Virus record (IMG/VR): IMGVR_UViG_3300022231_000047
Span: 1-7,720 of that record
Strand: one strand, 5' to 3'
Length of the DNA: 7,720 nucleotides
Origin: a virus
Positions 722-7,649 of the stretch are shown one piece after another. Positions within the stretch are counted from its first letter, which is position 1, and the number at the start of each line of letters is the position of its first letter. The notes beneath the pieces are model-generated. The model saw nothing but the letters and a program-made list of their open reading frames with translations. It did not search any database and had not been told where the DNA came from. Made by a program: the position numbers and the translations under genes.

Positions 722-1018
722 ATGCCGGTCTGGTTCCTTCTGTCCGCTCTGCTGGTTGCACCGGCAGGGTGGGCTTCCCGGTCAATGCCTCCGGTCGGGT
801 GCCTCGAAACGGACGCGGGCGCGCGTTGGTGCGTCGGCGATGTGCGCTTGCGTCCCGGGGGTCCGGTGGTGGTTCCGTCCGGTCCGCATCCGGCCACGGT
901 GATTCAACCGGCTCGGCCTGTGTACTCGGTGGGCCAGGTGGTGCCAAGTTTGCCGGAGCTGCTGCCGGAACGTCGAAAGGGGCGCTATGAGCGCGCGGGC
1001 GAGTTTGTTGTGCGTTGA
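722..1018 (+). CDS. 98-aa hypothetical secreted protein
   Basis: ATG 722 directly follows the coat stop (TAA 719..721). The N-terminus is signal-peptide-like (MPVWFLLSALLVAPAGWA). Third codon positions are G/C-rich like neighbouring genes. The 3' end overlaps the pIII-like start by 32 nt in another frame. Confidence 0.5.
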   Translation: MPVWFLLSALLVAPAGWASRSMPPVGCLETDAGARWCVGDVRLRPGGPVVVPSGPHPATVIQPARPVYSVGQVVPSLPELLPERRKGRYERAGEFVVR

Positions 1019-2555
1019 GGTCTTGCGGTGGTTGTTCTGGCTTTCTGTCGCGTTGGTGGGCCTTGGGGGGTTCTCTGGTACCGTCGGCGCTGAAACGTGC
1101 TCGGGTGGGGTCTGCACGGAGCCTGCGACTTCATCGGGTGGGGCTGTCCCTCCCGTCAACTATTCCTGTTATTCCGGGATGCCTCCGGCAGACAAGCGGA
1201 CTAATCAGGCGGCCGCTGAATACTGGTGTTTGCAGTACTTCGTCGGCGAGTCTAATGCAGCGTTGCGGACACGTGACAGCAGGGAGTCGCGTTCTTATGG
1301 CTATATGCTCAACTGGAAATATACAAGCGGTGCGGGCGGGGTTGCTGGTGTCGGGATGACGTACAACTGCGCTGCGGGGCAGACGAAAGCGTACGTGGCG
1401 ACGGGTGATCTGTTCTGCACGGGTGGGACGGTCTATACGTGTCCGTCGACGGGCGGCTGGACGTTGAGCGGTACGAACTGCACGCGACCCGCCTGTGCGG
1501 CTGGCACCAGTCGTCAAGCTGACGGGTCGTGCTTGAAGGATTGCGGTGTGCCTGTCGATGAGCAAGTCGGCGCGGGCTCCATTTACCTCCGGCCGGGCGA
1601 CGGTGGCAAGGTCTGCGTTGAGGGCTGTAGCGCGTATATCGGGGGTCGGACCTATACTGAGGGGGGGCAAACGTACGGGCAAGCGTGGTCCTATGGCGTG
1701 TCTTGTACGGGCGGCACGGAAGCAAGCCCGACGCCGGCCGGTGAGGCTTCGCCTGCGGAGTCCGCCTGCCATGATCGCGGGATGTGCTCCGGCACGGTGA
1801 GCGGCGCGACCATCTGCGTCACGTGTGATTCAACGTCGAGCGAAACGAAAACCACGAAAACGGAAACGCCACCTGGTGCGGCGGGTCCGACAACCACCAC
1901 CACCACCACAACCACCACTTGCGTTGAGGCTGGATCGTGCTCGACGACAACCACTTCGACCACCAGCGGGCCAGGGGGCTCCGGAACGTCGAGCGAAACG
2001 ACGACAAAGCCGAGTGGCGCGGAGCCGGACGCGGGCGAAGAAAAGCCCGAGTCGAAACCGTTCTGTGAGGAAAACCCGGACAGTCCTATCTGCAAGGTGT
2101 CGTCTTTCTCCGGTACTTGCGGCGCGGAGCCGGCTTGTGAAGGCGATCCCGTGCAGTGTGCGCAGGCGCGCGAAGCGTTCAAGCTCCGGTGTGCGCTGAC
2201 TCCGAATGCGACAGATGACGGTCCGATAACCTCGGCGAAACATTCCGACGCGTCGAAGGATGCGCTTACCGAGCAACAGCAACAGGCCCTTGATCTCATC
2301 AACGGGGTAACGCCGGATCCGTCGTCGGCGTCGCGTTCTGCCTGGGATGCGGCGATGTCGTCGGGCTGGTTCGAGCCGATCACTATCGCGGGCTGCGCGC
2401 CGTTGCACATGGAGTTTGCAGGGCACTCCGTGACGTGGGACCACTGCCCGGTCGCTGCGAAAATCAGCGACATCGGGAGCTATGCGCTTTGGTTCGGTTT
2501 GTTGGTCGGCGGGTTCGTCTTTCTGACGGGCGGCCGTAATGCGGGAGTCTCGTAA
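987..2555 (+). CDS. pIII-like adsorption/minor coat protein, 522 aa
   Basis: AAAGGGG precedes ATG 987. The protein has a long N-terminal signal/hydrophobic segment and Cys-rich N-terminal domains. A Thr/Ser/Gly/Pro low-complexity linker includes T10. The C-terminal region is Cys-rich (CEENPDSPIC...CGAEPACEGDPVQCAQAREAFKLRC) and ends in a TM anchor (YALWFGLLVGGFVFLTGG). It is the largest gene and sits between the coat and pVI-like genes. Confidence 0.8.
   Translation: MSARASLLCVEVLRWLFWLSVALVGLGGFSGTVGAETCSGGVCTEPATSSGGAVPPVNYSCYSGMPPADKRTNQAAAEYWCLQYFVGESNAALRTRDSRESRSYGYMLNWKYTSGAGGVAGVGMTYNCAAGQTKAYVATGDLFCTGGTVYTCPSTGGWTLSGTNCTRPACAAGTSRQADGSCLKDCGVPVDEQVGAGSIYLRPGDGGKVCVEGCSAYIGGRTYTEGGQTYGQAWSYGVSCTGGTEASPTPAGEASPAESACHDRGMCSGTVSGATICVTCDSTSSETKTTKTETPPGAAGPTTTTTTTTTTCVEAGSCSTTTTSTTSGPGGSGTSSETTTKPSGAEPDAGEEKPESKPFCEENPDSPICKVSSFSGTCGAEPACEGDPVQCAQAREAFKLRCALTPNATDDGPITSAKHSDASKDALTEQQQQALDLINGVTPDPSSASRSAWDAAMSSGWFEPITIAGCAPLHMEFAGHSVTWDHCPVAAKISDIGSYALWFGLLVGGFVFLTGGRNAGVS
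1890..1919 (+). repeat. ACC/ACA trinucleotide tract encoding a run of 10 Thr in the pIII-like linker
   Basis: The sequence aca(acc)5 aca acc acc act is read directly in frame, with five perfect ACC units at 1893..1907. Confidence 0.9.
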
Positions 2556-2914
2556 TGCCTTTGCCTATTGCGGGTGGGTTCTTCGTCTGGTTGGTGGGTT
2601 TGGTCGGGTCGGCGGCGACGGCGGCGTTCACGTGGTTCGCGACGCATACCGCGTACAAGATGGCGCTGCACTATGCGCGCGTCGTCGCGTTCATCATCGT
2701 TGCCGGGTCGCTGTTCCTGGCGCTGTCGCTGGCTATCAAAGCGGCGATCTTGGCGGCGCGGGTGGCGATGCCTGAGTCGCTTGGACAGGCCACTTACTTT
2801 CTGCCGGGGAACATCAATACGATTTTCGCTCTGTTCGTGACTCTGCGAGTGTCGGCGGCGCTGTATCAGTGGACGCTGCGCAATGTGAAAATCATTACGC
2901 AAACGGTGTACTGA
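2555..2914 (+). CDS. pVI-like minor coat / membrane protein, 119 aa
   Basis: The start overlaps the pIII-like stop as TAATG. The protein is strongly hydrophobic with several TM segments (GGFFVWLVGLVGSAATAAF, VVAFIIVAGSLFLALSLAI, INTIFALFVTL). It sits in the canonical position between pIII and pI. Confidence 0.7.
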   Translation: MPLPIAGGFFVWLVGLVGSAATAAFTWFATHTAYKMALHYARVVAFIIVAGSLFLALSLAIKAAILAARVAMPESLGQATYFLPGNINTIFALFVTLRVSAALYQWTLRNVKIITQTVY

Positions 2915-3792
2915 TGGCCGACTACGCGATTACCGGGCGCAAGGGCTCCGGGAAAAGCCTGTTTGCGGTCGGGCTGATGCGCGACGCGTTGCGCGCGGGT
3001 CGGCGAGTGGCGACTAATCTGGATGTGCGCCTCGATGTGCTCTTGGGCGCACGCAGTCGCGCGACGTTGACGAGGCTTCCCGACAAGCCATGCGTGGATG
3101 ACTTGGAAGCCCTCGGCCGGGGCCAGGAAGGGCCAGTCGAGGATGAAAACGGGCTGCTCGTGCTGGACGAGACAAGCACGTTCTTCAATTCGAGGTCGTT
3201 CGGCGACAGGTCGCGTCAGCCGATGCTCGATTGGTTGGTGCACAGTCGTAAGCTCGGGTGGGATGTCTACTACATCTGCCAGGGGCTAGACCAGATCGAC
3301 AAGCAACTGCGAACGACGATGATCGAATATCACATATCCGTGAAACGTACGGACAAGTGGCCTATTCCGTTCGTGTCGTCGTTGACGGCGCTGCTTGGGT
3401 ATCGGGTCGGGTTTCCGCGGCTCCATATCGGGGTCACTCGGTACGGTGTCGAGCGCGACGGGCTTGTGTGCGGCCGGAAGTACTTCCGGGCGGAGGACCT
3501 TTATCCGGCTTACGACACGCAACAGCTTTTCTTGCCTCGCGAGCATCCGGCCGCGTGCGGGTTGCATACGGTTCTCTCTGGGTATCTGGTCCGGGGTCGG
3601 TATCTGCCGGAGCCGCCTGGGTACTGGCGTCGCTTCGTCTTGTCGCTGCTCGGCAAGTCCTGGGAAGCTGAAGTCAGGCCGCAGGCCGTCGAGCTCAAGC
3701 GCAAGCTTCCTGTGGTTGAGCGCCTGGGCCGTCTGCCACCAGATGAGGCCGTCCGGGTCTGGCATGGCCTTCAGCGGCGGGGCTTGATCTAG
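2914..3792 (+). CDS. Zot/pI-like assembly NTPase, 292 aa
   Basis: The start overlaps the pVI-like stop as TGATG (ATG 2914). Walker A is GRKGSGKS (nt 2935..2958). A Walker-B-like GLLVLDE follows. The N-terminus MADYAITGRKGSGKSLFAV is typical of the Zot/pI family. The upstream in-frame extension from 2869 was rejected. Confidence 0.85.
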   Translation: MADYAITGRKGSGKSLFAVGLMRDALRAGRRVATNLDVRLDVLLGARSRATLTRLPDKPCVDDLEALGRGQEGPVEDENGLLVLDETSTFFNSRSFGDRSRQPMLDWLVHSRKLGWDVYYICQGLDQIDKQLRTTMIEYHISVKRTDKWPIPFVSSLTALLGYRVGFPRLHIGVTRYGVERDGLVCGRKYFRAEDLYPAYDTQQLFLPREHPAACGLHTVLSGYLVRGRYLPEPPGYWRRFVLSLLGKSWEAEVRPQAVELKRKLPVVERLGRLPPDEAVRVWHGLQRRGLI

Positions 3793-3871
3793 CCGACCGG
3801 TGCCGTTGTAATCGCGAGCGAAGCGAGCGCGCGCTCGACAATGCACCATTTGAGTGCATCACAGAATGAGA

Positions 3872-3903
3872 CACTTATCCAGGTGCGCTTACCTGGTTAA
3901 GTG
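3872..3903. promoter_or_regulatory. Imperfect inverted repeat (11/12) cacttatccagg-N8-cctggttaagtg, operator-like
   Basis: The left arm 3872..3883 and right arm 3892..3903 are reverse complements with one mismatch. The repeat lies in an AT-richer intergenic stretch upstream of the 3970 gene. Confidence 0.6.
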
Positions 3904-3934
3904 TATCAACGCTTGACACAGTTATCCAGGTGCG
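3875..3934 (+). repeat. Two exact 13-nt direct repeats TTATCCAGGTGCG (3875..3887 and 3922..3934), 47 bp apart
   Basis: Exact identity read from the sequence. The second copy fills the spacer of the predicted promoter. Confidence 0.9.
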
Positions 3935-3941
3935 AGACAAT
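3913..3941 (+). promoter_or_regulatory. Sigma70-like promoter TTGACA-17-GACAAT for the wHTH regulator gene
   Basis: A consensus -35 TTGACA lies at 3913..3918, followed by a 17-nt spacer and GACAAT at 3936..3941 (4/6 to TATAAT). AGGAG at 3957..3961 lies 8 nt before ATG 3970. Confidence 0.55.
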
Positions 3942-3969
3942 ATCGTTTTCAACGACAGGAGTCTGCGCC

Positions 3970-4257
3970 ATGGATAACCCTCTGCTTCAGCAACTGGAAA
4001 TGGTCGAGCGTCTCGCTAAAGCCGGGACGATCGGTCTGTCTGCTGCCCGGCTCTGCGAGGATGCGGGCATATCGCTTGCGACCCTTAAACGCTACCTTGC
4101 GGAGCTGCGCCACCTCGGCGCGAGGATCGAATCGTACGGGGGTGGGCGCGGCCCGTGGCACTATCGCCTTCGGAACTGGCAACAGATTGAAAAGACTGTC
4201 ACCGCTTGGCTTCGCCTTGAACGTGCCAGGAGTTTCACGGAACTGGACTGCGGATAG
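3970..4257 (+). CDS. Small winged-HTH-type transcriptional regulator, 95 aa
   Basis: AGGAG RBS plus ATG 3970. The segment GLSAARLCEDAGISLATLKRYLAELRHLGARIES looks like a DeoR/HTH_11-style helix-turn-helix followed by a wing. Repeated motifs flank the gene. The GTG 3901 start in the track would run through the promoter and was rejected. Confidence 0.6.
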   Translation: MDNPLLQQLEMVERLAKAGTIGLSAARLCEDAGISLATLKRYLAELRHLGARIESYGGGRGPWHYRLRNWQQIEKTVTAWLRLERARSFTELDCG

Positions 4258-4742
4258 TCTCTACCTGGATACCCGACCGCCGCGTGTGGGTATCCCGGTC
4301 GGCGTCTGCTCTGCGCCGATCACTTCCTGCCGACCGCAGTGAAGCCGCGCCAATGTGCGCACGGCACAGCCGCCCCGTTGAGCACGTGCGGCGCGTTTTG
4401 TGCGCCGTGCGGGTGATTTACGGGGGCAAGGGGCGCGTTCTCTGCGCCCCTTGATGCGGGGGTCACCACAAGCCCCTCCAGGGCGCCGGACGAGGGTGCA
4501 CCGGGCGCGTGCGGTTTTCTCGGCTGACCTTCTGTAGCGTTTCTCGTGGTGCTCGGTCTTGGTCGCTGCCGTGCTCGGCACGCGATAAGCTCGCCTTGGC
4601 TACGCCCCACCCCGCCCCGACGGCTTGTGGACGGGGGGGACCCATTGCGGCAGCAATGGGGGGTCGGCCACGTTTAAGCCGTTGGCCCTCTTGGGCTGTG
4701 CTCCATAGCGGAATGGTTTTGTTCCCGATTGGCCATGATTTT
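4258..4742. other. Large structured intergenic region, candidate replication origin and/or packaging signal
   Basis: This 485-bp stretch has no credible ORF. It contains several GC-rich stem-loops. One is 4385..4411 (11 bp including G-U pairs), which competes with pairing between 4358..4365 and 4404..4411. Others are 4428..4452 (9-bp perfect stem, 7-nt loop), 4641..4660 (8-bp perfect stem, GGCA loop, flanked by G runs) and 4666..4687 (7 bp with a bulge). The position between the morphogenesis and regulatory modules matches inovirus intergenic regions. Confidence 0.5.
4263..4295. promoter_or_regulatory. Inverted copy of the TATCCAGGT motif (4263..4271), embedded in a stem-loop (ggataccc 4267..4274 / gggtatcc 4288..4295)
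   Basis: The reverse complement of 4263..4271 is TATCCAGGT, identical to the core of the two upstream repeats. An 8-bp perfect stem with a 13-nt loop starts 10 nt after the TAG stop at 4257. Confidence 0.55.
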
Positions 4743-5183
4743 TTATAATCGGTTTTCGCATTTCGATAAGCCGAAACTAACATAAACCCAAATTATGCGC
4801 ACCCAAGCTGCATAAAAAACCGCTGCGCTAGCGGTCAGAATTCCACCAAGCTGTGCGGCTTCGGTGCCTGAAGTGGCGATAAAACTCGATGCCAGCGTGC
4901 ACGCTATCAGCACCAGCAAAGCGGCACGCGACAGAAAAGACCGCCAGAATTCCGCGCGCGTCTTGTCTTTCTCTCTCTGGCTTTCCAGGTCGGCTAAAAC
5001 CCTTGCCGGGTCTAGCTTCAGGGTGATGGCTAGCTTCATGACGATGTAATTGTCGGGCCATTCTACGCCCTTCCTGTAGGCGCTGATTCGAAAGCGCGTG
5101 GTGCCGATTCGCTTCGCAAGTTCGTTGTCGGCCAGGATGCCAAGCTCGGCCTTGGCGGCGTCGAGATATTCGGCGGGTGTCAT
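4743..5183 (-). CDS. Divergent HTH (XRE/Cro-CI-like) repressor with two C-terminal TM helices, 146 aa
   Basis: ATG 5183 (minus strand) is preceded by AAGGAAGAG. The N-terminus NELAKRIGTTRFRISAYRKG is HTH-like. The C-terminus has AALLVLIACTLASSFIA and LGGILTASAAVFYAAWVRIIWVYVSF. It is the only minus-strand gene and faces the replication operon, which is the classic immunity-repressor position. The track start at 5246 lacks an RBS and was rejected. Confidence 0.7.
   Translation of the reverse strand: MTPAEYLDAAKAELGILADNELAKRIGTTRFRISAYRKGVEWPDNYIVMKLAITLKLDPARVLADLESQREKDKTRAEFWRSFLSRAALLVLIACTLASSFIATSGTEAAQLGGILTASAAVFYAAWVRIIWVYVSFGLSKCENRL
4775..4803 (-). other. dif-like XerC/XerD recombination site (candidate attP)
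   Basis: The minus strand reads GGTGCGCATAA-TTTGGGT-TTATGTTAGTT. E. coli dif is GGTGCGCATAA-TGTATA-TTATGTTAAAT. The XerC arm matches 11/11 and the XerD arm 9/11, but the central region is 7 nt rather than 6. The site lies in a locally AT-rich patch. Confidence 0.65.
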
Positions 5184-5218
5184 CGTTCTCTTCCTTCGGT
5201 GCTTGTGAATACCCTTCA

Positions 5219-5286
5219 AGATTAGTCCGATTTTCCGCACTTGCAATGTTCGAAAAACCGCACTAGATTGGCGGCTGTGCGGTTTT
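5219..5286. promoter_or_regulatory. Divergent promoter/operator switch
   Basis: The rightward promoter is TTGCAA (5241..5246)-17-TAGATT (5264..5269). The same palindromic TTGCAA could serve as a leftward -35, with TAATCT (reverse complement of 5219..5224) after a 16-nt spacer. A perfect 10-bp inverted repeat aaaaccgcac (5254..5263) / gtgcggtttt (5277..5286) brackets the rightward -10. A third CCGCACT half-site lies at 5235..5241. Confidence 0.5.
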
Positions 5287-5316
5287 CAGCACATAACCAA
5301 CAAGTGAGGTGAGGTG

Positions 5317-5625
5317 ATGCGAGTTCATGCCATAGGTGTCAAGCGTTTGTCGGGTGTTGGTAAGGAAACCGGTCGTCAATACGATTTCGCTCAACTGGAA
5401 ATCTTGCGGCCAATGGAGCCGGTTGCAAAGAAGGATTTCCGGCTGATGGGGTACGGGTTCGAGACTTCCAAGCTGGACCTTGCTCCGGATTGCCTGGAGA
5501 AGTTCCGGGATGTGCGCTTCCCCGCCCAGCTCGATCTGGCCGTCGAAACCGTACCGGGTCGGAATGGTCTCCGGTCCGTGGTCGTCGGTTTTCGCAATCC
5601 GGCCGACGTGAAGGCAGCCGCGTAA
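5317..5625 (+). CDS. Candidate gVp-like ssDNA-binding protein, 102 aa
   Basis: GAGG at 5306..5309 lies 7 nt before ATG 5317. The N-terminus MRVHAIGVKRLSGVGKETGRQYDFAQLE parallels Ff gVp (MIKVEIKPSQ..TTRSGVSRQGKPYSLNEQ). The size and beta-rich pattern are compatible with an OB fold. The assignment rests on by-eye similarity only. Confidence 0.4.
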   Translation: MRVHAIGVKRLSGVGKETGRQYDFAQLEILRPMEPVAKKDFRLMGYGFETSKLDLAPDCLEKFRDVRFPAQLDLAVETVPGRNGLRSVVVGFRNPADVKAAA

Positions 5626-5631
5626 TGCCAG

Positions 5632-5692
5632 CCGCCCGCATCTCTGTTGCGCTGGTCCGCGCGGAGTTGCGGTATTGCCTCCGTGCGGGCGG
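5632..5692. other. 9-bp perfect inverted repeat ccgcccgca / tgcgggcgg, 43 nt apart, in the 148-bp spacer between the gVp-like and 178-aa genes
   Basis: The arms lie at 5632..5640 and 5684..5692. In addition, the 8-mer CTGGTCCG is directly repeated at 5652..5659 and 5726..5733, each followed by GGAG. Confidence 0.5.
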
Positions 5693-5773
5693 TCATCGGT
5701 GCTCTGCCCTTCCGGCTCCGTTCTACTGGTCCGGGAGCTTCGCAATTTCCCGTTGTCGCGAGGGCTGGCTGTG

Positions 5774-6310
5774 ATGGCCTCGCAGGTGGCCGTGCTTTTC
5801 GCCCGCAAGCGGTCCGTGTATCACGGTCTGGCCGGGTGTGATGTTTGGACAGCTGAGCGGGACGCGCGGCGTTATGTGGGTTCGCATCCTGTCATCGCGC
5901 ATCCGCCGTGTCGCGCTTGGGGTCGCCTCAAGGGACAGGCCAAACCGCGATCGGACGAGCGCGAGCTGGCTTTCTTCGCTGTGGAACAGGTGCGGCGTTG
6001 TGGGGGCGTCTTGGAGCATCCGGCGTTTTCCAGTCTTTGGGGTGCGGCGGGTCTTGCTGGACCTGGCACGCGCGATCTGGCCGGGGGCTGGACGCTTCCG
6101 ATACTGCAAAGCTGGTTCGGTCATCGTGCGCCCAAAGCGACCTGGTTGTACCTGGTTGGCGTCGAGCCGTCAGATTTGCCGCTGATTCCGTTCGCTCTCG
6201 GTACTGCTCTCGGTCGTGTGGAAATGATGGGCCAAGCCGAACGGGAGAAAACGCCGTTAGAGCTTGCTACCTGGCTTGTTGCTGTCGTGCGTCGGGTGGG
6301 TCGGGTATGA
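5774..6310 (+). CDS. 178-aa hypothetical protein with a methyltransferase-core-like HPPC...LEHP motif pattern
   Basis: GAGGG (5760..5764) lies 9 nt before ATG 5774. Coding-type G/C-rich third positions are seen throughout. The motifs are PVIAHPPCRAWG (Cys46, nt 5909..5911) and GGVLEHPAFSSLW (Glu81, nt 6014..6016). The stop overlaps the next start (ATGA). Confidence 0.7.
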   Translation: MASQVAVLFARKRSVYHGLAGCDVWTAERDARRYVGSHPVIAHPPCRAWGRLKGQAKPRSDERELAFFAVEQVRRCGGVLEHPAFSSLWGAAGLAGPGTRDLAGGWTLPILQSWFGHRAPKATWLYLVGVEPSDLPLIPFALGTALGRVEMMGQAEREKTPLELATWLVAVVRRVGRV

Positions 6311-6507
6311 GCGGCACGTGTGGGAACTGCTCCGGCGGCAGGATTCTGCCGTGCGGCCCGATGGCGGGCGCGCTATGGTGTTTCGTCAAGCGTCAGGGGC
6401 GCGCGGATTCGTGGTGGTGTGACTCGTGGAAGCCCGCCCTCGGCGCGGCGCTCCCAAGGGTTACGGGACAGTTACACGTAACCAATCGCTCACTTTTGAG
6501 CAAATGA
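6307..6507 (+). CDS. 66-aa Cys/Trp-rich mini-protein, possible zinc-ribbon
   Basis: ATGA overlaps occur at both ends (6307..6310 and 6504..6507). The product begins MSGTCGNCSGGRILPCGPMAGALWCFVKRQGRADSWWCDSWKP, with Cys at positions 5, 8, 16, 25 and 38, including a CxxC pair. Confidence 0.5.
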   Translation: MSGTCGNCSGGRILPCGPMAGALWCFVKRQGRADSWWCDSWKPALGAALPRVTGQLHVTNRSLLSK

Positions 6508-7649
6508 GCGCATTTTTTAAGCAATCGGCGGCGTCGGCCGCGTCCGTCGAGGGCCATCCGGCTGCATGCCAAGTGGGTGCGGTCGTGTTCTGCGACTGGC
6601 TGACCATCTATCAGGACCATCATCAGGGCGGGCTGCCTGTTCTGAATGATGGGTATGTCGTGCGGTTCGAGTGCGACGCCTTCGGGCGTGCGGTCGATCA
6701 GGAAACCGGGGAAATCCGCCCGGTGTTCGATGCGTCGAAAGCAGAGTACACGGTCAGCCGTCGTCTTGAACACGAGGGGAGCTACGACACTCACTTAGCG
6801 GTGCGCTGCGATGGTATCCGGGTCGAGCTGTCCGGGAACGTCGGGCGCTTCGGGCGTCGGGATAACCTGTTCGGGCTGCCGGTGCTGGAAACCATCGCCA
6901 GGGCTAACGAAATCCTCGCGGTTCTCGGTCTGCCTCCGTTCACTCATGTCGAGGGCAATGGGCGCCTCGCGTTGAGCGATGGTTTCCACACTTCGCACAA
7001 TGCGGTGATCACTCGGGTTGATCTGACGGCGAATTACTCGGCCGGGTCTCGGGAGTCGGCTTATCGGGTGCTTCATTGGATGGGCGGTCAGGCGACCGTC
7101 AAGAAAGCGTCGCAGGGGCCGAAGGGGTACGGCAACGGTGTTACCTGGAATGAGGGCAGCAAGCGGCATTATGAGAAGCTGTATTACAAAGCTGATGAGC
7201 TTGGCAAGCATTGCTCGGATGAGGTCAGGGAGTATTGCGAATCGGCGGGAATACTCCGGTACGAGGTAAGTCTCAAATCCCGGCAACTGCTCCGGGATAA
7301 TCTTCAATCTATGGTGAGTTGGTCAAAGGTCGTCGGGGGTGAACGTATGGATAACGTGGTGTTTGGTCGGTTCGCTGAGGTTCTGACGCGCAATCAGGTA
7401 ACGGTAACGGACGTGCAGGATATTCCCGGCAAGCTCGGGCTTATCGCGCGGTCGTATCTCAACGGGGAAAACCCTTACAAGACTCTGCAAGCGGGCGCTT
7501 CCACGATTCGCCGTTGGCGTCGTGAGCTTCTCGCGTATGGGATCGACATTTCGCAACCGTGCGACATTCTGCGGGTGGGTGTGCGGGTCCGTCTTGTCGA
7601 ACTGCGTCCGGTCGCTGTTCCGGCGTGGTACTCGCGTGAGGCTGCCTGA
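6504..7649 (+). CDS. Rolling-circle replication initiator, gpII / RstA / Phage_CRI-like, 381 aa
   Basis: Family hallmarks can be read in the translation: CDWLT near the N-terminus, LSGNVGRFGRRDNLFG (GN...N-FG box), ITRVDLTANY, KLYYKADEL (Tyr-x-Lys region) and LRYEVSLKSRQL. The start at ATG 6504 is preferred because of the ATGA coupling. GTG 6426 is the alternative and would overlap the 66-aa ORF by 82 nt. Confidence 0.85.
   Translation: MSAFFKQSAASAASVEGHPAACQVGAVVFCDWLTIYQDHHQGGLPVLNDGYVVRFECDAFGRAVDQETGEIRPVFDASKAEYTVSRRLEHEGSYDTHLAVRCDGIRVELSGNVGRFGRRDNLFGLPVLETIARANEILAVLGLPPFTHVEGNGRLALSDGFHTSHNAVITRVDLTANYSAGSRESAYRVLHWMGGQATVKKASQGPKGYGNGVTWNEGSKRHYEKLYYKADELGKHCSDEVREYCESAGILRYEVSLKSRQLLRDNLQSMVSWSKVVGGERMDNVVFGRFAEVLTRNQVTVTDVQDIPGKLGLIARSYLNGENPYKTLQAGASTIRRWRRELLAYGIDISQPCDILRVGVRVRLVELRPVAVPAWYSREAA

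Follow-up and report, generated by a model that had tools for sequence, protein, structure and literature searches.

What is the 178-amino-acid (178-aa) protein encoded at positions 5774–6310 of IMG/VR virus record IMGVR_UViG_3300022231_000047, and what does it do for the phage that carries it? The stretch analysed here, which we call the window, is 7720 bases long and is the complete circular genome (about 7.7 kb) of an inovirus, a small filamentous phage. The gene lies on the plus strand in the replication operon and runs from an ATG at 5774 to a TGA stop at 6308–6310. An earlier, sequence-only reading of this DNA had recognised in the protein a pattern like that of the cytosine-5 (C5) methyltransferases, with a catalytic Cys and Glu retained and the cofactor loop lost. 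The open reading frame (ORF) exists as described there. At least 21 metagenome contigs carry a gene call for the identical protein, and its homologues number in the thousands, showing that the gene is genuine and did not arise as a fortuitous ORF in GC-rich sequence. Judging from predicted structures, we consider it very probable that the protein descends from the C5-cytosine DNA methyltransferase fold and is a minimal, single-domain version of it.

An AlphaFold2 model of the protein (model 1), made with an alignment of 53 family members, had a mean predicted local distance difference test score (pLDDT) of 93.5 and a predicted template modelling score (pTM) of 0.90. When the model was compared with the PDB using Foldseek, which is a check that the sequence-only reading had proposed, 48 of the top 50 matches were C5-cytosine DNA methyltransferases. 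These included M.HaeIII, M.HhaI, DNMT3A/B, DNMT1, ZMET2 and DIM2, with match probabilities of up to 0.95 and query-based template modelling scores (TMq) of 0.4–0.5, reaching 0.52. The two exceptions were a Dam structure (4rtn, rank 36) and an unrelated N-methyltransferase (rank 50). For the sister subfamily, an independent AlphaFold model (model 2, pLDDT 92.8) had C5-methyltransferases as all 50 of its top PDB matches. Searching BFVD with model 1 gave matches with E=1.7e-6 to 9e-4, probability 1.0 and TMq 0.54–0.68. The targets were viral proteins of 210–250 aa annotated as cytosine or S-adenosylmethionine (SAM)-dependent methyltransferases, or domains of this kind inside giant polyvalent phage proteins.

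The predicted model has a six-stranded Rossmann-type core. It begins with a strand (residues 5–8), a short helix and two further strands (22–25 and 40–42), the last of which leads into the H43-P-P-C46 loop. A helix (62–76) and a strand ending in E81-H-P (78–83) follow, and after another helix come a hairpin (106–111/122–128), a short variable linker and a C-terminal helix (162–172). This is the order of elements in C5 enzymes (motifs I, II, IV, VI, VIII and X) minus strand 3 with motif III and minus the target-recognition domain.

We then asked how well the residues expected in these motifs are conserved. All conservation percentages are from 362 aligned homologues in two subfamilies, and the C5 profile used with hhalign was composed of 42 IMG/VR viral sequences together with those of M.HhaI and M.HaeIII, which were checked against the PDB. 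A database search with M.HhaI itself yielded only relatives of 71% identity or more, which contributed little towards such a profile. The motif IV-like catalytic loop, H43-P44-P45-C46 (5900–5911), is 98–100% conserved and directly follows strand 4 of the model. It contains the putative nucleophile, Cys46, which hhalign places on the cysteine of PCQ, equivalent to C81 of M.HhaI. The motif VI-like residues E81-H82-P83 (6014–6022; E81 100%, H82 98–100%, P83 100%) are at the end of their strand, where C5 enzymes have ENV. EHP is not aligned to ENV by hhalign, and the proposed equivalence of Glu81 to Glu119 of M.HhaI comes from topology and spacing. The Cys46–Glu81 spacing is 35 residues, compared with 38 for Cys81–Glu119 in an M.HhaI sequence that is 100% identical to PDB 10mh. 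The sequence-only reading had given the same M.HhaI residues and spacings, and its numbering of the protein was also correct (VLFARKRS 7–14, HPPC 43–46, D61, EHP 81–83, WFGHRAPKATWLYLVGV 114–130 and EKTPLELATWLV 158–169). It had made its case depend on Cys46 and Glu81 being conserved among homologues, and we found C46 in 99–100% and E81 in 100% of them.

The C-terminal half is similar in this respect. The motif VIII-like hairpin, Q112–G129 (QSWFGHRAPKATWLYLVG; 6107–6160), has Q112 and K121 at 99–100%, G116 at 97–100%, H117 at 97–99% and T123 at 95–99%. In the hhalign alignment its FGH..K.T.LY.VG pattern is collinear with Y-G-I-P-Q-x-R-x-R-h-h-h-G and matches the YGIPQKRERIYMICF stretch of M.HhaI. 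Residues 130–153 (6161–6232), a variable linker of about 24 residues with a pLDDT of 75–86, occupy the position of the target-recognition domain, and homologues carry insertions of variable length here. The segment R157–A170 (REKTPLELATWLVA; 6242–6283), which includes the C-terminal helix, resembles motif X and is a candidate counterpart of it. T160 (97–100%) and P161 (97–99%) are its best conserved residues, and R157 and L168 were also noted; the sister subfamily has E-A-x-A-T-P where C5 enzymes have G-N-A-V-P. This subfamily is closer to the canonical C5 motifs in its catalytic loop as well, where it reads H-P-P-C-Q-x-W-G. Aligned by hhalign, the family profile matched the diverse C5 profile with P=0.003–0.007; nothing was obtained when the family profile was compared with M.HhaI alone. 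Together, the fold, the placement of C46, the motif VIII alignment and the invariant Cys46 and Glu81 support the C5-cytosine-methyltransferase reading.

Whether the protein still uses SAM depends on its N-terminal part. Residues 5–16 (VAVLFARKRSVY; 5786–5821) form strand β1 and a remodelled motif-I loop. Column frequencies give L-(F/Y)-(A/V)-(R/Q/E)-x-(D/N/G)-(S/G)-x-Y for this loop family-wide, compared with the canonical L-F-x-G-x-G-G. The sequence-only reading had pointed out that the canonical F-x-G-x-G-G loop is missing and that there is no room for a target-recognition domain, and both statements are true of the whole family. Within the loop, L8 (98%), F/Y9 and Y16 (97–100%) are conserved, R11 is found in 77% of homologues and the basic run R11–R13 is only partly kept. 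Position 14 corresponds to the third motif-I glycine; it is Ser in 90% of the query subfamily, and the sister subfamily has Gly there throughout (100%). After strand β2 there is a near-invariant triplet, R29-D30-A31 (5858–5866; 98%, 91–100% and 97–99%, respectively), which is a candidate counterpart of the acid that binds the cofactor ribose and adenine in motifs II/III. The N-terminal subdomain of C5-methyltransferases serves only to bind SAM (AdoMet). Since the N-terminal 35 residues are among the best conserved parts of the protein, they do not look like a vestige, and their conservation suggests that this subdomain probably still binds something. Thus, the earlier claim of a lost cofactor loop is right in that the canonical glycine loop is absent; loss of the cofactor itself is unproven.

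Several observations weigh against an active C5-methyltransferase. The first two motif-I glycines are gone family-wide, replaced by Arg/Gln/Glu and Asp/Asn, and strand 3 with motif III is absent, which casts doubt on SAM binding of the canonical kind. Lys121 and Thr123 occupy the positions of the two arginines of Q-x-R-x-R. Three invariant histidines, H43, H82 and H117, are beside the Cys and Glu and are without counterpart in C5-methyltransferases; these may mean a different chemistry. No match to PF00145 was found for the query, 53 relatives or 4 distant relatives at thresholds from E≤1 to 10. The score of the profile alignment comes nearly entirely from motif IV (26.8 with the real C5 profile, 24.1 with block-shuffled C5 profiles and 12–14 with reversed ones). 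Because the block-shuffled control nearly equals the real score, we do not count this alignment as independent proof of homology. The E-values of the PDB Foldseek matches are weak, at only about 1e-2, although the PDB contains many Rossmann-type folds and the near-exclusive matches to C5 enzymes therefore count for more than individual E-values. No homologue was found in 72,556 plasmids (PLSDB), which is unlike the known methyltransferases that act on single-stranded DNA entering a cell. Finally, the Rhodobacter microvirus Ebor encodes a family member, Gp8, and nanopore calls on Ebor virion DNA were 1.58% 5-methylcytosine (5mC) versus 11.5% N6-methyladenine (6mA), none of which the authors could attribute to Gp8 (PMC11980548). 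This low 5mC level does not suggest promiscuous cytosine-5 methylation.

The family to which the protein belongs is very large. In one database, homologues with E≤1e-3 formed 2202 clusters at 90% identity, and in another there were 1825 clusters at 50% identity. A search with the sister subfamily gave at least 8000 matches, and for the family as a whole the cluster count is 8000 or more at 90% identity and 1825 at 50% identity. The protein matches phrog_12600, labelled 'unknown function', with E=1.1e-66 (residues 4–152 on profile positions 3–151 of 203), and distant relatives match the same profile with E=1e-46 to 1e-65. Searches of Pfam, NCBIfam, PADLOC and PDB sequences with the query and 53 relatives gave nothing relevant. 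Nearly all named members are labelled 'hypothetical'. The exception that we found is Ebor Gp8, a true member with 48% identity across 96% of the query, which is encoded directly upstream of the Rep gene. Its label, 'putative DNA methylase', comes from an HHpred match only (E=2.3e-8 to UniProt Q67472; PMC11980548). The family is restricted to phages and spans Inoviridae, Microviridae, PM2-like prophages and tailed phages; members of the sister subfamily include Caulobacter phage Jess A, Pseudomonas phage Persinger and Ralstonia phage PQ43W. Only 14 of 50,697 deposited phage records (INPHARED) contain it, compared with thousands of metagenome clusters, and the family is heavily under-sampled in cultured systems. 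In phage MW202476 (77 kb; region 3306–4627) the homologue is unannotated and overlaps the end of a gene annotated as 'DNA N-6-adenine-methyltransferase', so the database label that appears under a BLAST hit here is that of the neighbour and not of the homologue.

To learn what the gene travels with, we compared its surroundings across phages. The setting was always an early or replication module. In small rolling-circle phages, such as the query phage and Xanthomonas inovirus fSU1, the gene is immediately upstream of the initiator gene. The same order of gene and Rep occurs in the microviruses Ebor and Tortoise MV37 and in PM2/corticovirus-like prophages of Burkholderia gladioli, Vogesella and Pyruvatibacter; with these prophages sharing it, the 'gene then Rep' cassette is common to three virus realms or families. 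At 79 bacterial-genome loci a large ORF was found just downstream in 45, and about 20 of these ORFs are rolling-circle initiators (REP_ORF2-G2P/Phage_GPA 10, Rep_trans 5, Phage_CRI 2, Rep_1 2 and RepSA 1). Small PM2/corticovirus-like prophages harbour the closest bacterial-genome homologues. They encode a capsid protein of the P2_N/P2_C double-jelly-roll type and, in one case, a Zot-like ATPase, and the B. gladioli, Pyruvatibacter and Vogesella prophages use Phage_GPA- or Rep_1-type initiators.

For IMG/VR, we counted the context at the 80 best loci only. Twenty-eight of these are on contigs shorter than 13.6 kb, with Rep downstream in 14, and 52 are on larger contigs, presumably of tailed phages. 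Downstream of the gene on the 52 larger contigs are an N6_N4 methyltransferase (4), NinG (4), an integrase (6), terminase and others. No Rep_trans, Phage_CRI, Phage_GPA or Rep_1 domain was found downstream on these contigs, and one ORF had a match to G2P_X_C. The neighbours in deposited tailed phages are Dam (MW202476), ParB (Persinger), primase (Jess A), helicase (PQ43W) and the large terminase (Casadabanvirus Meltemi), and in sister-subfamily prophages the gene is beside ParB-HTH, N6_N4 methyltransferase and Prim-Pol genes. In rare multidomain relatives the domain is fused with a D12 Dam methyltransferase (two clusters), with ParB_N (one cluster, 742 aa) or with a HATPase_c_3 (MORC/MutL-like) module (811 aa). 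We read these data as describing an autonomous accessory gene of phage early modules with DNA modification as its theme. In our reading, the adjacency to Rep reflects the architecture of tiny genomes and not a specific partnership.

How might such a protein work? In every enzyme of the C5-methyltransferase fold, a Cys adds to C6 of the pyrimidine while a Glu protonates N3. By analogy, Cys46 would attack C6 of a pyrimidine, most likely cytosine, Glu81 would protonate N3, and a one-carbon group would then be transferred to C5. The donor would most likely be SAM, held by a remodelled N-terminal pocket (L8, F9, S/G14, Y16, R29 and D30). Because there is no recognition or base-flipping domain, little sequence specificity would be expected, and the preferred substrate may be exposed bases in single-stranded or replicating DNA, including the displaced plus strand and replication intermediates. 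A preference of this kind would fit both the enrichment in rolling-circle phages and the co-translation with Rep in this genome.

The corresponding role would be that of an early-expressed, autonomous modification of phage DNA against restriction, protecting the replicative form and progeny DNA. In the query inovirus, co-translation with Rep would allow the replicative form and the rolled-off plus strand to be marked during synthesis. The fusions to Dam and ParB and the adjacency to Dam or N6_N4 methyltransferase genes support a role in DNA modification, and its presence as an accessory gene in phages with the smallest genomes (Microviridae, Inoviridae and PM2-like) fits a strong counter-defence benefit. 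The accessory methyltransferases of microviruses are generally assumed to be anti-restriction proteins (PMC9239249; PMC11499846), and protection of incoming conjugative-plasmid DNA has been demonstrated for M.EcoGIX and M.BceJIII, which are single-strand-specific, promiscuous adenine methyltransferases (PMC7736820). Taking the models and contexts together, we put a methyltransferase with an anti-restriction role at close to an even chance, perhaps slightly below. A more novel idea is that the protein is a natural minimal C5-pyrimidine enzyme that can do without a recognition domain because its targets are exposed bases in single-stranded or rolling-circle DNA. It could then be the first non-specific or single-strand-specific cytosine-5 methyltransferase, with a non-glycine AdoMet site of a kind not seen before, or a cofactor-independent enzyme with a His-assisted deaminase, demodifying or covalent-adduct activity that phages use against host defences. 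This is possible but, in our view, doubtful.

Cofactor-independent chemistry on the C5 scaffold deserves consideration in its own right. The Cys46–C6 adduct would then form with no methyl donor, and the protein could be a DNA cytosine deaminase or mutator, an enzyme that removes or exchanges C5 substituents, or a covalent DNA trap, with H43, H82 and H117 activating water or binding a metal. The missing glycine loop and motif III strand, the three histidines flanking Cys and Glu, and the low 5mC calls in Ebor DNA are all consistent with this. C5-methyltransferases deprived of SAM slowly deaminate cytosine and exchange at C5, which also speaks for it. By contrast, the strong conservation of the N-terminal cofactor subdomain, including Gly/Ser at position 14, argues for a bound cofactor, deamination would be costly to a phage's own tiny genome, and the partners in fusions and neighbourhoods are methyltransferases and not repair or glycosylase genes. 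On balance we think cofactor-free chemistry unlikely. A substrate other than DNA, which would make the protein a Dnmt2-like tRNA cytosine-5 methyltransferase or a free-nucleotide enzyme used to reprogramme the host or to evade defences that target nucleotides or tRNA, seems highly unlikely given that the domain is found next to, or fused with, DNA methyltransferases, ParB and replication proteins, that R11–R13 are only partly conserved and that nothing in the context hints at RNA. This idea draws on the fold that Dnmt2-type enzymes share (EhMeth, 3qv2, is among the model 2 matches, and 6fdf and 1g55 are relatives of the M.HaeIII query), on the absence of a DNA-recognition domain and on the basic residues R11, K12 and R13, which could bind phosphate.

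The sequence-only reading had offered two further possibilities. From the translational coupling of the gene through a 66-aa ORF into Rep, it argued for a stoichiometric role. On this view the protein would be a replication accessory factor that assists the rolling-circle initiator in a fixed ratio, perhaps at the origin or where the strand is displaced. The coupling is real, with both ATGA overlaps present, and the position directly upstream of the initiator recurs in fSU1, Ebor, Tortoise MV37, the PM2-like prophages, the approximately 20 bacterial loci and half of the small viral contigs described above. The argument for stoichiometry is nonetheless weakened since the small intervening ORF is not conserved and family members are frequent in tailed phages lacking a rolling-circle Rep, as on the 52 larger contigs. 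Moreover, at least four unrelated Rep families are tolerated, making a specific cofactor unlikely; the invariant, enzyme-like residues argue for catalysis; and in small phages the early operon is nearly the sole site for an early accessory gene. A fixed partnership with Rep is thus quite unlikely. The other possibility was a degenerate β-class N6-adenine or N4-cytosine methyltransferase, with HPPC in place of DPPY and TP..LA.WL in place of the HP..KP..L helix. The xPPx shape, the TP-helix resemblance, the Dam structure at rank 36 and the high 6mA calls in Ebor DNA are in its favour. However, C5 enzymes are the top matches of two independent models, and there is no match to PF01555 or PF02086 in the domain itself. 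The elements are ordered β1-β2-PPC-E-hairpin-helix (I-IV-VI-VIII-X), as in C5 enzymes and without permutation, and the protein ends after its C-terminal helix with no glycine motif there. The sister subfamily has PPCQ-x-W-G, which is the C5 consensus, and to our knowledge a Cys replacing the stacking aromatic residue is unprecedented in N-methyltransferases. These results leave the β-class alternative extremely improbable and favour the C5 descent of the protein.

The gene set of the window recurs in circularly permuted contigs of 7.7–7.8 kb from several independent metagenome assemblies (ENA, Logan and JGI). The longest contigs with the identical protein are 7.7–7.8 kb circular permutations of one gene order, which indicates a free circular genome. 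None of 50,697 deposited phage records was matched when the whole window was searched with megablast. The rightward replication operon starts with a gene for an RstB-like single-stranded DNA-binding protein (5314–5625, plus strand; Pfam CTX_RstB E=2.5e-7, phrog_929). The 178-aa gene comes next, followed by the 66-aa Cys-rich ORF (MSGTCGNCSGGRILPCGPMAGALWCFVKRQG..., starting MSGTCGNCSGG; 6307–6507, plus strand), which is called in public assemblies, and by a 381-aa G2P-type rolling-circle Rep (6504–7649, plus strand; Pfam Phage_CRI and G2P_X_C, phrog_702 'replication protein'). The ATG of the 66-aa ORF at 6307 overlaps the stop of the 178-aa gene (ATGA), and its own stop overlaps the ATG of Rep at 6504. 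The 66-aa product may be a small zinc-binding protein. We asked whether it accompanies the family consistently, perhaps standing in as a DNA-recognition subunit. It does not, as a similar ORF was found at one other locus only; the other loci compared have unrelated ORFs or none at this position. That similar ORF (..SCLLCNSSRVPSSGPRAGSLWCLLKRAG..) is at the same place in a Rhodocyclaceae prophage (5518–5739).

On its left side, the replication operon is bounded by a divergently transcribed helix-turn-helix (HTH) repressor-like gene (4743–5246, minus strand; phrog_638 'transcriptional regulator', E=1.7e-18, with a weak HTH_3 match). A hydrophobic segment towards the C terminus of its product, AALLVLIACTLASSFIATSG...AAVFYAAWVRIIWVYVSF, suggests that this regulator is anchored in the membrane. 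A repeat search detected an 18-nucleotide (nt) inverted repeat (5246–5294, no strand; 83% complementary with a 13-nt spacer) exactly between this gene and the RstB-like gene, in the divergent promoter region, and it is a likely operator of the replication operon. The rest of the window encodes a Gp8-type major coat protein (407–721), a 522-aa adsorption-like protein (987–2555, plus strand; phrog_4352, no Pfam match), a g6p-like protein (2555–2914), a Zot/g1p assembly ATPase (2869–3792) and an HTH_11 protein (3901–4257). The adsorption-like protein has many cysteines and a run of ten threonines within a linker rich in Ser, Thr, Gly and Pro. Two 38-nt direct repeats (3850–3887 and 3897–3934; 79% identical, 47 nt apart) lie immediately before the HTH_11 gene and extend over its start; they look like operator or iteron elements. 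No dif/XerCD site or Rfam element was found in searches of the window.

Orphan DNA methyltransferase-like proteins of phages were already known, and one homologue had been given the label 'putative DNA methylase' via HHpred. The new element is the anatomy of the protein: its C5-fold core of 178 aa keeps an invariant Cys and Glu, lacks a recognition domain, and combines a motif I that is non-glycine across the family with a strongly conserved cofactor subdomain. Its membership in a very large, unannotated and phage-restricted family is also new. Should the protein prove active, it would be about the smallest known enzyme with the C5-methyltransferase fold and would show what the C5 catalytic core is capable of when it has neither a recognition domain nor the canonical cofactor loop. 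If it is a non-specific or single-strand-specific C5 methyltransferase, it would make a useful reagent for footprinting and epigenomic labelling, as M.EcoGII is for adenine. The proposed role, if true, would account for the way in which the smallest phages (micro-, ino- and PM2-like), with room for hardly any accessory genes, cope with restriction, and would provide a function for a very abundant family that is now without one. If the activity is independent of SAM, the conflict between phage and host would have gained a new means of modifying or damaging DNA.

As a comparison, the protein shares with M.HhaI and M.HaeIII (PF00145, EC 2.1.1.37) the fold, the Pro-Cys loop after strand 4 (PPC-x-x-W/F-G/S), the Glu at the end of strand 5, and a collinear motif VIII-like hairpin with a C-terminal helix. 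It differs from them in being 178 aa long versus about 330 aa, in having no target-recognition domain, strand 3 or motif III, and in reading F-A-R-x-D-S for F-x-G-x-G-G, EHP for ENV and Q...GH...K-x-T for Q-x-R-x-R. The best structural matches are the BFVD proteins A0A0A0RJX0, A0A6J5NZU5, A0A2P0VN45 of Tetraselmis virus 1 and C3U2K5 of Lactococcus phage P087. Like the query these are compact and viral and apparently have no full recognition domain, with a sequence identity of only 13–18%; we know of no characterisation of these small viral proteins annotated as methyltransferases.

Functionally, the nearest analogues are M.EcoGIX, M.BceJIII and the non-specific M.EcoGII, which by methylating single-stranded or newly replicated mobile DNA with low specificity act against restriction on entry. 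These differ in being N6-adenine enzymes with normal SAM motifs that are found on plasmids and prophages, whereas the query family has no plasmid members. DNMT3L and other catalytically altered members of the C5-methyltransferase fold provide another comparison, as a precedent for this fold persisting after canonical motifs are lost and acquiring different roles. DNMT3L has lost the catalytic Cys and Glu while keeping a regulatory role. The change in the query family is the converse, with the catalytic residues kept and the cofactor loop altered.

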